This document shows positions 1 through 2,565 of a stretch of 2,565 nt of DNA, in pieces. A program made the translations under genes and the position numbers. The stretch's first letter is position 1; each line of letters starts with the position of its first letter. Source of the stretch: Escherichia phage MCn10; sequence record OP745094.1, one strand, 5' to 3'. The notes below the pieces were generated by a model. That model saw only the letters and a program-made list of their open reading frames with translations, had not been told where the DNA came from and made no database searches.

Positions 1-2565
1 ATGAAAATTGCGGTGGTGGATAAAGCGCTGAACAACACCCGCTATGATAAACATTTTCAGCTGTATGGCGAAGAAGTGGATGTGTTTCATATGTGCAACG
101 AAAAACTGAGCGGCCGCCTGCTGAAAAAACATATTACCATTGGCACCCCGGAAAACCCGTTTAACCCGAACGATTATGATTTTGTGATTCTGGTGGGCGC
201 GGAACCGTTTCTGTATTTTGCGGGCAAAAAAGGCATTGGCGATTATACCGGCAAACGCGTGGAATATAACGGCTATGCGAACTGGATTGCGAGCATTAGC
301 CCGGCGCAGCTGCATTTTAAACCGGAAATGAAACCGGTGTTTGATGCGACCGTGGAAAACATTCATGATATTATTAACGGCCGCGAAAAAATTGCGAAAG
401 CGGGCGATTATCGCCCGATTACCGATCCGGATGAAGCGGAAGAATATATTAAAATGGTGTATAACATGGTGATTGGCCCGGTGGCGTTTGATAGCGAAAC
501 CAGCGCGCTGTATTGCCGCGATGGCTATCTGCTGGGCGTGAGCATGAGCCATCAGGAATATCAGGGCGTGTATATTGATAGCGATTGCCTGACCGAAGTG
601 GCGGTGTATTATCTGCAGAAAATTCTGGATAGCGAAAACCATACCATTGTGTTTCATAACCTGAAATTTGATATGCATTTTTATAAATATCATCTGGGCC
701 TGACCTTTGATAAAGCGCATAAAGAACGCCGCCTGCATGATACCATGCTGCAGCATTATGTGCTGGATGAACGCCGCGGCACCCATGGCCTGAAAAGCCT
801 GGCGATGAAATATACCGATATGGGCGATTATGATTTTGAACTGGATAAATTTAAAGATGATTATTGCAAAGCGCATAAAATTAAAAAAGAAGATTTTACC
901 TATGATCTGATTCCGTTTGATATTATGTGGCCGTATGCGGCGAAAGATACCGATGCGACCCTGCGCCTGCATAACTTTTTTCTGCCGAAAATTGAAAAAA
1001 ACGAAAAACTGTGCAGCCTGTATTATGATGTGCTGATGCCGGGCTGCGTGTTTCTGCAGCGCGTGGAAGATCGCGGCGTGCCGATTAGCATTGATCGCCT
1101 GAAAGAAGCGCAGTATCAGCTGACCCATAACCTGAACAAAGCGCGCGAAAAACTGTATACCTATCCGGAAGTGGTGCAGCTGGAAAAAGATCAGAACGAA
1201 GCGTTTAACCCGAACAGCGTGAAACAGCTGCGCGTGCTGCTGTTTGATTATGTGGGCCTGACCCCGACCGGCAAACTGACCGATACCGGCGCGGATAGCA
1301 CCGATGCGGAAGCGCTGAACGAACTGAGCACCCAGCATCCGATTGCGAAAACCCTGCTGGAAATTCGCAAACTGACCAAACTGATTAGCACCTATGTGGA
1401 AAAAATTCTGCTGAGCATTGATGCGGATGGCTGCATTCGCACCGGCTTTCATGAACATATGACCACCAGCGGCCGCCTGAGCAGCAGCGGCAAACTGAAC
1501 CTGCAGCAGCTGCCGCGCGATGAAAGCATTATTAAAGGCTGCGTGGTGGCGCCGCCGGGCTATCGCGTGATTGCGTGGGATCTGACCACCGCGGAAGTGT
1601 ATTATGCGGCGGTGCTGAGCGGCGATCGCAACATGCAGCAGGTGTTTATTAACATGCGCAACGAACCGGATAAATATCCGGATTTTCATAGCAACATTGC
1701 GCATATGGTGTTTAAACTGCAGTGCGAACCGCGCGATGTGAAAAAACTGTTTCCGGCGCTGCGCCAGGCGGCGAAAGCGATTACCTTTGGCATTCTGTAT
1801 GGCAGCGGCCCGGCGAAAGTGGCGCATAGCGTGAACGAAGCGCTGCTGGAACAGGCGGCGAAAACCGGCGAACCGTTTGTGGAATGCACCGTGGCGGATG
1901 CGAAAGAATATATTGAAACCTATTTTGGCCAGTTTCCGCAGCTGAAACGCTGGATTGATAAATGCCATGATCAGATTAAAAACCATGGCTTTATTTATAG
2001 CCATTTTGGCCGCAAACGCCGCCTGCATAACATTCATAGCGAAGATCGCGGCGTGCAGGGCGAAGAAATTCGCAGCGGCTTTAACGCGATTATTCAGAGC
2101 GCGAGCAGCGATAGCCTGCTGCTGGGCGCGGTGGATGCGGATAACGAAATTATTAGCCTGGGCCTGGAACAGGAAATGAAAATTGTGATGCTGGTGCATG
2201 ATAGCGTGGTGGCGATTGTGCGCGAAGATCTGATTGATCAGTATAACGAAATTCTGATTCGCAACATTCAGAAAGATCGCGGCATTAGCATTCCGGGCTG
2301 CCCGATTGGCATTGATAGCGATAGCGAAGCGGGCGGCAGCCGCGATTATAGCTGCGGCAAAATGAAAAAACAGCATCCGAGCATTGCGTGCATTGATGAT
2401 GATGAATATACCCGCTATGTGAAAGGCGTGCTGCTGGATGCGGATTTTGAATATAAAAAACTGGCGGCGATGGATAAAGAACATCCGGATCATAGCAAAT
2501 ATAAAGATGATAAATTTATTGCGGTGTGCAAAGATCTGGATAACGTGCGCCGCATTCTGGGCGCG
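1..2565 (+). CDS. Family A DNA polymerase with 3'-5' proofreading exonuclease domain, T5-like phage replicative polymerase; 855 codons, no stop codon within the window
   Basis: Frame +1 is open from ATG at 1-3 to the last base with no in-frame stop. Manual translation shows exonuclease motifs: Exo I in VAFDSETSAL (D164/E166, nt 490-498), Exo II in HNLKFD (D224, nt 670-672), Exo III in YAAKDTDAT (Y312/D316, nt 934-948). Polymerase motifs: motif A in WDLTTAEVYY (D527, nt 1579-1581; E532, nt 1594-1596), motif B/O-helix RQAAKAITFGILYG (nt 1762-1803; compare E. coli Pol I RRSAKAINFGLIYG), motif C in MLVHDSVV (H733-D734-S735, nt 2197-2205). The 855-aa length and the N-terminal MKIAVVDKALNN... sequence match my recollection of phage T5 DNA polymerase; not verified by search. 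Gene symbol left blank because I am not certain of the T5 gene name. Confidence 0.93.
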   Translation, partial: MKIAVVDKALNNTRYDKHFQLYGEEVDVFHMCNEKLSGRLLKKHITIGTPENPFNPNDYDFVILVGAEPFLYFAGKKGIGDYTGKRVEYNGYANWIASISPAQLHFKPEMKPVFDATVENIHDIINGREKIAKAGDYRPITDPDEAEEYIKMVYNMVIGPVAFDSETSALYCRDGYLLGVSMSHQEYQGVYIDSDCLTEVAVYYLQKILDSENHTIVFHNLKFDMHFYKYHLGLTFDKAHKERRLHDTMLQHYVLDERRGTHGLKSLAMKYTDMGDYDFELDKFKDDYCKAHKIKKEDFTYDLIPFDIMWPYAAKDTDATLRLHNFFLPKIEKNEKLCSLYYDVLMPGCVFLQRVEDRGVPISIDRLKEAQYQLTHNLNKAREKLYTYPEVVQLEKDQNEAFNPNSVKQLRVLLFDYVGLTPTGKLTDTGADSTDAEALNELSTQHPIAKTLLEIRKLTKLISTYVEKILLSIDADGCIRTGFHEHMTTSGRLSSSGKLNLQQLPRDESIIKGCVVAPPGYRVIAWDLTTAEVYYAAVLSGDRNMQQVFINMRNEPDKYPDFHSNIAHMVFKLQCEPRDVKKLFPALRQAAKAITFGILYGSGPAKVAHSVNEALLEQAAKTGEPFVECTVADAKEYIETYFGQFPQLKRWIDKCHDQIKNHGFIYSHFGRKRRLHNIHSEDRGVQGEEIRSGFNAIIQSASSDSLLLGAVDADNEIISLGLEQEMKIVMLVHDSVVAIVREDLIDQYNEILIRNIQKDRGISIPGCPIGIDSDSEAGGSRDYSCGKMKKQHPSIACIDDDEYTRYVKGVLLDADFEYKKLAAMDKEHPDHSKYKDDKFIAVCKDLDNVRRILGA

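Follow-up and report, generated by a model that had tools for sequence, protein, structure and literature searches.

In passages of PMC3303844 and PMC3201878, the DNA polymerase of bacteriophage T5 is described as highly processive by itself and as able to displace the downstream strand. Its N-terminal extension has been reported to be uracil-DNA glycosylase (UDG)-like, with a suggested role in processivity (Kazlauskas and Venclovas 2011; PMC3201878), and a UDG-PolA class, in which a family-4 UDG is fused to PolA, is also on record (Czernecki et al. 2023; PMC10201439). The T5 enzyme has been engineered as well: the D164A/E166A substitutions were chosen to raise its error rate, and A593R is a substitution in its polymerase motif B (PMC8284885). 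Here we compare with these systems a stretch of 2,565 nucleotides (nt) given under sequence record OP745094.1 (Escherichia phage MCn10), which we call the window and which encodes a DNA polymerase along its whole length. The encoded protein is the known replicative DNA polymerase of the T5-like phages (Tequintavirus), in the version found in Salmonella phages Spc35 and Th1 rather than in T5. It is encoded by DNA that is almost certainly a reverse translation of that protein, made by computer or at least designed mechanically, with the commonest Escherichia coli codon used throughout.

Frame 1 of the plus strand is free of stop codons over nt 1-2565 and reads as 855 sense codons, from Met1 to Ala855 (ATG to a final GCG). 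By our own arithmetic, the chance of 855 stop-free codons is about (61/64)^855, or roughly 1e-18. An exact-sequence look-up showed that the translation is identical at 855 of 855 residues to the polymerases of Spc35 (ADW80092.1, YP_004306595.1) and Th1 (QEA11190.1, YP_009849799.1); the 90%-identity cluster containing this exact sequence has 541 members. A tblastn search of 50,697 phage records returned Th1 and Spc35 at 99.9-100% identity over 100% of the length, together with hundreds of further Tequintavirus genomes at 95-99% identity. Codon-by-codon comparison traced the sole apparent mismatch to Th1 and Spc35 to the TTG with which the natural genes start and which is read as Met. The profile PHROG 17 (‘DNA polymerase’) was matched over residues 1-853 with an E value of 4e-185. 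The T5 polymerase itself (gene pol/D7-D9, T5.122, YP_006950.1) has equal length and architecture, all of the motifs and both terminal extensions, and is identical at 847 of 855 positions (99.1%). Its eight differences are the same in NC_005859 and AY587007 (from window to T5: N55D, M182I, L321I, V392K, K396Q, S443A, D815E and R850K), and none of them touches a catalytic motif; each lies in a column that varies among 116 aligned T5-like polymerases. Full-length near-identity, the presence of both extensions and the lack of a 5'-3' exonuclease domain place the protein among the T5-like replicative polymerases, and the eight substitutions against both T5 records show that it is not T5's own sequence. 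An earlier note, made from the DNA letters alone, had proposed a complete gene for what was probably the T5 polymerase. It was right about the family, but the exact sequence belongs to Spc35 and Th1; the full 855-codon protein is indeed present, but there is no stop codon, the start is ATG and not the natural TTG, and the DNA is artificial. The same note held that the enzyme is well characterized and no novel system. We agree: it is already known, biochemically characterized and used in biotechnology, and our analysis refines its source to Spc35/Th1 rather than T5.

The case for artificial DNA rests first on codon usage. Over the 855 codons no amino acid is written in more than one way, and this holds for all 18 degenerate amino acids (GCG, TGC, GAT, GAA, TTT, GGC, CAT, ATT, AAA, CTG, AAC, CCG, CAG, CGC, AGC, ACC, GTG and TAT), whereas the genes of the natural relatives use two to six codons for each of them. 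We counted codons in 124 long open reading frames (ORFs) of E. coli K-12 MG1655, comprising 52,370 codons from four 50-kb stretches, and the codon used in the window was the commonest for 20 of 20 amino acids. In a smaller sample of 42 E. coli genes, rich in highly expressed ones, the figure was 17 of 20, the other three being near ties; the difference between the two samples indicates that a genome-wide rather than a high-expression E. coli table was used. The log10 probability of the codon choice in the window is -456 under the codon frequencies of the natural gene and -38 even when a preferred codon is assumed to be chosen in 90% of cases. The G+C content at third codon positions is 57%, compared with 34% in the natural genes.

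Comparison at the DNA level leads to the same result. Against Th1, 512 of the 855 codons differ and every change is synonymous. The Spc35/Th1 genes match the window at 77.0% of nucleotides although all 855 residues are the same, and the natural genes are 95-97% identical to one another. The best nucleotide identity found by megablast to any of the 50,697 phage records was 78.4%, and a 45-mer of the window was not found in the viral or genome contig collections. The Spc35/Th1 genes start with TTG and end with TGA; the window starts with ATG and has no stop codon, features that fit a protein sequence as the input. The natural genes also lie in a flanking context, and those of T5 and Spc35 share 8 nt with the downstream ORF; the window has neither the flanks nor the overlap. 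Neither the mixed codon usage of natural phage DNA nor a DNA similarity that matches the protein similarity is seen. What is seen is the pattern of a mechanical E. coli back-translation, with one commonest codon per amino acid, ATG for residue 1 and no stop. We found no evidence that contradicts this reading.

A polymerase gene with these properties could also have been synthesized physically, as a codon-optimized expression construct such as an E. coli plasmid insert from which the stop was dropped for a C-terminal tag. The E. coli-preferred codons and the ATG start would suit such a construct, as would the missing stop in the case of a C-terminal fusion. Software for gene design usually varies the codons and eliminates common cloning sites, whereas the window obeys its one-codon rule without exception and keeps three NdeI sites (at 88, 1456 and 1702), two NcoI sites (at 783 and 1983) and two NotI sites (at 110 and 1469). 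The remaining cloning sites are by themselves a small argument for an in-silico origin, and together with the strict rule they speak for mechanical reverse translation over a commercially optimized synthetic gene. In addition, CAT, ATT, CGC, AGC and GCG are the commonest codons genome-wide and not those of highly expressed genes, and no match to the window was found among 72,556 plasmids. The T5 polymerase does serve as a fusion partner in biotechnology (PMC8284885; PMC13243474), but the TADR study worked with the natural gene, amplified from a phage lysate (PMC8284885). On balance we consider a physically made, codon-optimized gene unlikely. The sequence alone has no power to tell physical synthesis from existence in silico.

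The second alternative is that the window is a natural gene from a T5-like phage that has yet to be sequenced, with a codon usage that has shifted in the direction of E. coli. In favour of this, the protein is genuinely one of the Tequintavirus polymerases, and E. coli is within the host range of T5-like phages. However, its relatives use two to six codons where the window uses one, and they share 95-97% of their DNA with each other but only 77% with the window. The combination of 512 synonymous codon changes with zero amino-acid changes is not an evolutionary pattern, the log10 probability remains at or below -38 even under extreme bias, the stop codon is missing, and ATG stands in place of the natural TTG. 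The codon table, the 77% DNA identity and the probability figures led us to reject a natural gene with extreme codon bias, to which we attach hardly any probability.

As a reverse translation of the Spc35/Th1 polymerase, the window can be read for its protein, all of whose features lie on the plus strand. The N-terminal extension (residues 1-136, nt 1-408) is followed by a 3'-5' proofreading exonuclease domain of the DEDDy type (residues 137-331, nt 409-993) that matches DNA_pol_A_exo1 (PF01612) with an E value of 1.3e-39 and 136.2 bits against a cutoff of 23.6. The family A polymerase domain, comprising thumb, palm and fingers, was assigned by Pfam to residues 369-760 (nt 1105-2280; DNA_pol_A, PF00476; E 4.1e-66, 223.9 bits against a cutoff of 34.3), and the conserved polymerase core extends beyond this limit to about residue 787. 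The remaining residues, 788-855 (nt 2362-2565), form a helical, poorly conserved C-terminal extension. No Pfam or NCBIfam model matched residues 1-136 or about 788-855, the isolated segments having also been scanned with Pfam. The exonuclease domain holds Exo I (DSET, residues 164-167, nt 490-501), Exo II (NLKFD, residues 220-224, nt 658-672) and Exo III (YAAKDTD, residues 312-318, nt 934-954). The polymerase domain holds motif A (DLTTAEV, residues 527-533, nt 1579-1599), motif B (RQAAKAITFGILYG, residues 588-601, nt 1762-1803, with the pattern RxxxKxxxFxxxYG) and motif C (VHDS, residues 732-735, nt 2194-2205). The three exonuclease motifs fit the patterns DxE, NxxxD and YxxxD, and motif A fits DxxxxE. 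Both profile scores lie above threshold and all six motifs are present in canonical order, so that the protein belongs to the DEDDy 3'-5' exonucleases and to the family A polymerases. Residue numbering in the engineering literature on T5 polymerase (D164, E166, A593) is the same as that of the window, and the D164A/E166A sites of PMC8284885 fall on Exo I of the window protein.

The Klenow fragment of E. coli polymerase I, an enzyme of low processivity, was used as the structural reference. In a HMMER alignment the six motifs match those of the Klenow fragment residue for residue, motifs A, B and C pairing with DYSQIEL, RRSAKAINFGLIYG and VHDE. D164 and E166 pair with residues 32 and 34 of the Klenow chain, which are D355 and E357 of Pol I, and D164, E166, D224, Y312 and D316 together pair with the DEDDy active-site residues of the Klenow exonuclease. 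D527 and D734 pair with the catalytic aspartates, and R588, K592, F596 and Y600 of the O-helix pair with the residues that bind the deoxynucleoside triphosphate. All of these DEDDy, aspartate and O-helix residues are invariant in the alignment of 116 T5-like polymerases. A difference is seen in motif C, where Ser735 of the window protein pairs with Glu883 of Klenow, giving HDS in place of HDE (residues 734-735, nt 2200-2205). V732, H733, D734 and S735 are invariant in 116 of 116 T5-like polymerases and, judged from this alignment, the absence of a third carboxylate is a trait of the T5-like family and no defect. An AlphaFold2 (AF2) model of the polymerase (predicted local distance difference test score, pLDDT, 91.6; predicted template modelling score, pTM, 0.87) has the right-hand Pol I fold and was aligned by Foldseek to the Klenow fragment 8oo6_A with a TM score of 0.85. 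The earlier note had listed all six motifs in canonical order, 855 residues, no 5'-3' exonuclease domain and extensions at both termini; it had also predicted a T5 or T5-like phage polymerase as the top match, and an exonuclease model ahead of one for family A polymerases. Translation, Pfam, NCBIfam, tblastn, the look-up and the alignment to Klenow bear out these points.

No 5'-3' exonuclease domain was matched by Pfam in the window protein, and the NCBIfam Pol I model is matched only from profile position 294 of 889 onwards. This late start, together with a score under the equivalog cutoff, shows that the protein lacks such a domain and is no Pol I of the bacterial kind. That the window might encode a repair enzyme of bacteria (Pol I, or a truncation resembling Klenow) in place of a phage replicase is a vanishingly small prospect: the best matches among solved structures are to the E. 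coli Klenow fragment (E 7e-50; Foldseek E 3.7e-35) and ‘DNA polymerase I’ is the best NCBIfam model, but the scores for the two equivalogs NF004397 and TIGR00593, 304.5 and 245.3 bits, fall short of the respective cutoffs of 720 and 600, the identity to Klenow (PDB 1d9d, 1kfs, 8oo6) is only about 25-28% compared with 99-100% to Tequintavirus polymerases, the 5'-3' exonuclease domain of full-length Pol I is missing, and the N-terminal domain was found by tblastn only in T5-like phages. Tequintavirus identity, the Pol I scores below cutoff and the exact-sequence look-up all led us to reject it. The Klenow fragment differs further in having neither a UDG-like N-terminal domain nor a C-terminal extension.

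The N-terminal extension is an alpha/beta domain with a UDG-like fold. Outside the window its sequence was matched by tblastn only in the polymerases of T5-like (Demerecviridae-type) phages of enterobacteria, Proteus, Aeromonas and Vibrio. The fold agrees with the published UDG-like prediction (PMC3201878) and with the UDG-PolA class (PMC10201439). Sequence comparison gave a different picture. Pfam UDG (PF03167) did not match the N-terminus of the window protein even at E values up to 10. A profile of seven N-terminal sequences, compared with PDB sequences, gave only chance matches to galectin (E 0.2), and a profile of 22 sequences gave no match at E values up to 10 and no UDG. One of the 22 N-terminal homologues had a weak, sub-threshold Pfam UDG match (E 0.0069). 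Residues 1-136 contain a single cysteine and lack those that an iron-sulfur cluster requires, and neither membership of the UDG superfamily by sequence nor the catalytic and iron-sulfur residues of family 4 could be recognized. Given its one cysteine and the failure of UDG profiles to match it, the domain is unlikely to work as a family-4 glycosylase. The UDG-like domain is conserved in 116 of 116 T5-like polymerases examined, with recognizable glycosylase sequence features lost. It also differs from the UDG-PolA class of PMC10201439, whose reclassification left the T5-like PolAs outside its clusters: the domain of the window protein is shorter (about 136 residues) than that of UDG-PolA and has no Pfam UDG match. 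The polymerase of phage N4 was tried as a UDG-PolA reference and dropped, as it has no Pfam UDG match either.

The annotated start of this domain varies between records. The polymerase has 855 residues in NC_005859, Th1 and Spc35 and 825 in AY587007 and several cluster members; the 825-residue form would remove 30 residues of the UDG-like domain. The genes compared for this purpose (L001, 3001-5568; L002, 11098-13665; L004, 3182/3272-5749) all have TTG starts. A further polymerase N-terminus, 99.3% identical to that of the window, lies at 50393-50812 of MG065692.1, an unannotated 99.9-kb genome named ‘Campylobacter phage C13’; the host label ‘Campylobacter’ looks doubtful for a T5-like phage.

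At the other end of the protein, the AF2 model places helices at residues 787-854. Residues 788-855 are the least conserved part of the polymerase and, in the 116-sequence alignment, have an occupancy of 0.48 and a mean top-residue frequency of 0.21; the extension is present in about a third to two thirds of the T5-like homologues. According to a passage of PMC3303844 that cites Andraos et al. 2004, T5 polymerase without its extended C-terminus no longer displaces strands. Since the extension is patchily present and poorly conserved, many T5-like relatives may differ in their strand-displacement behaviour.

The genomes in which the natural gene resides point to a replication module. In T5 the gene order is primase, polymerase and D10 helicase, and the 5' nuclease function comes from a flap endonuclease with a gene of its own, D15; the replication-module context is seen in the natural T5, Th1 and Spc35 genomes. 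Directly downstream, a 498-nt ORF (T5.123, also called the ‘D10 5' region’) shares 8 nt with the end of the natural polymerase gene, at 13658-13665 of the T5 locus (L002) and at 3161-3168 of the Spc35 locus (L006). Th1 differs in having a 288-nt ORF after a gap of 200 nt. Two metagenomic T5-like polymerases, P0037 (1217 residues) and P0053 (1251 residues), have Pfam matches to LAGLIDADG_2 (PF03161) and Intein_splicing (PF14890) alongside their exonuclease and polymerase domains; from these domain matches they appear to be intein-interrupted versions of the T5-like enzyme.

The window polymerase can be pictured as built of four parts: the UDG-like N-terminus, the DEDDy proofreading exonuclease, the polymerase domain and the helical C-terminal extension. 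Like T5 polymerase, it would replicate phage DNA processively and with strand displacement, in the absence of a clamp or a thioredoxin-type cofactor, and the 5'-3' flap nuclease would be provided by a separate phage gene (D15 in T5). Our analysis shows directly the identity, domain content, motifs and fold of the protein and the artificial codon pattern of its DNA. What we infer for the Spc35/Th1 enzyme, from 99% identity and the published work on T5, is its catalytic activity, its processivity, its ability to displace strands and what its termini do; the biochemical properties were measured on T5 polymerase and are carried over here to the Spc35/Th1 variant.

Some other properties of the window are explained by its origin. 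Four ORFs of 43-74 residues are found in alternative frames (341-472 and 1955-2179 on the plus strand; 1248-1391 and 1686-1889 on the minus strand), and the GC and AT skews are uniformly positive across the window. Because the DNA is a back-translation, these short ORFs and the skews are artefacts of the codon table. The window should thus not be treated as genomic DNA: only the protein sequence carries biological information, and the codon table accounts for the GC content and skews, for the restriction sites and alternative-frame ORFs, and for any signals that look regulatory, promoter-like or repetitive.

For the T5-like family, the structural support for a UDG-like N-terminus is a small confirmation of a published prediction. 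We tentatively suggest, while regarding it as rather doubtful, that the domain may be a built-in DNA-binding or processivity module, or else a sensor governing how the primer is shared between the polymerase and exonuclease sites. The idea of such a module has already been proposed in print, and a structural demonstration of it was not found in the literature consulted. If true, the N-terminal module would explain how polymerases of the T5 type achieve their high processivity without a clamp or thioredoxin.

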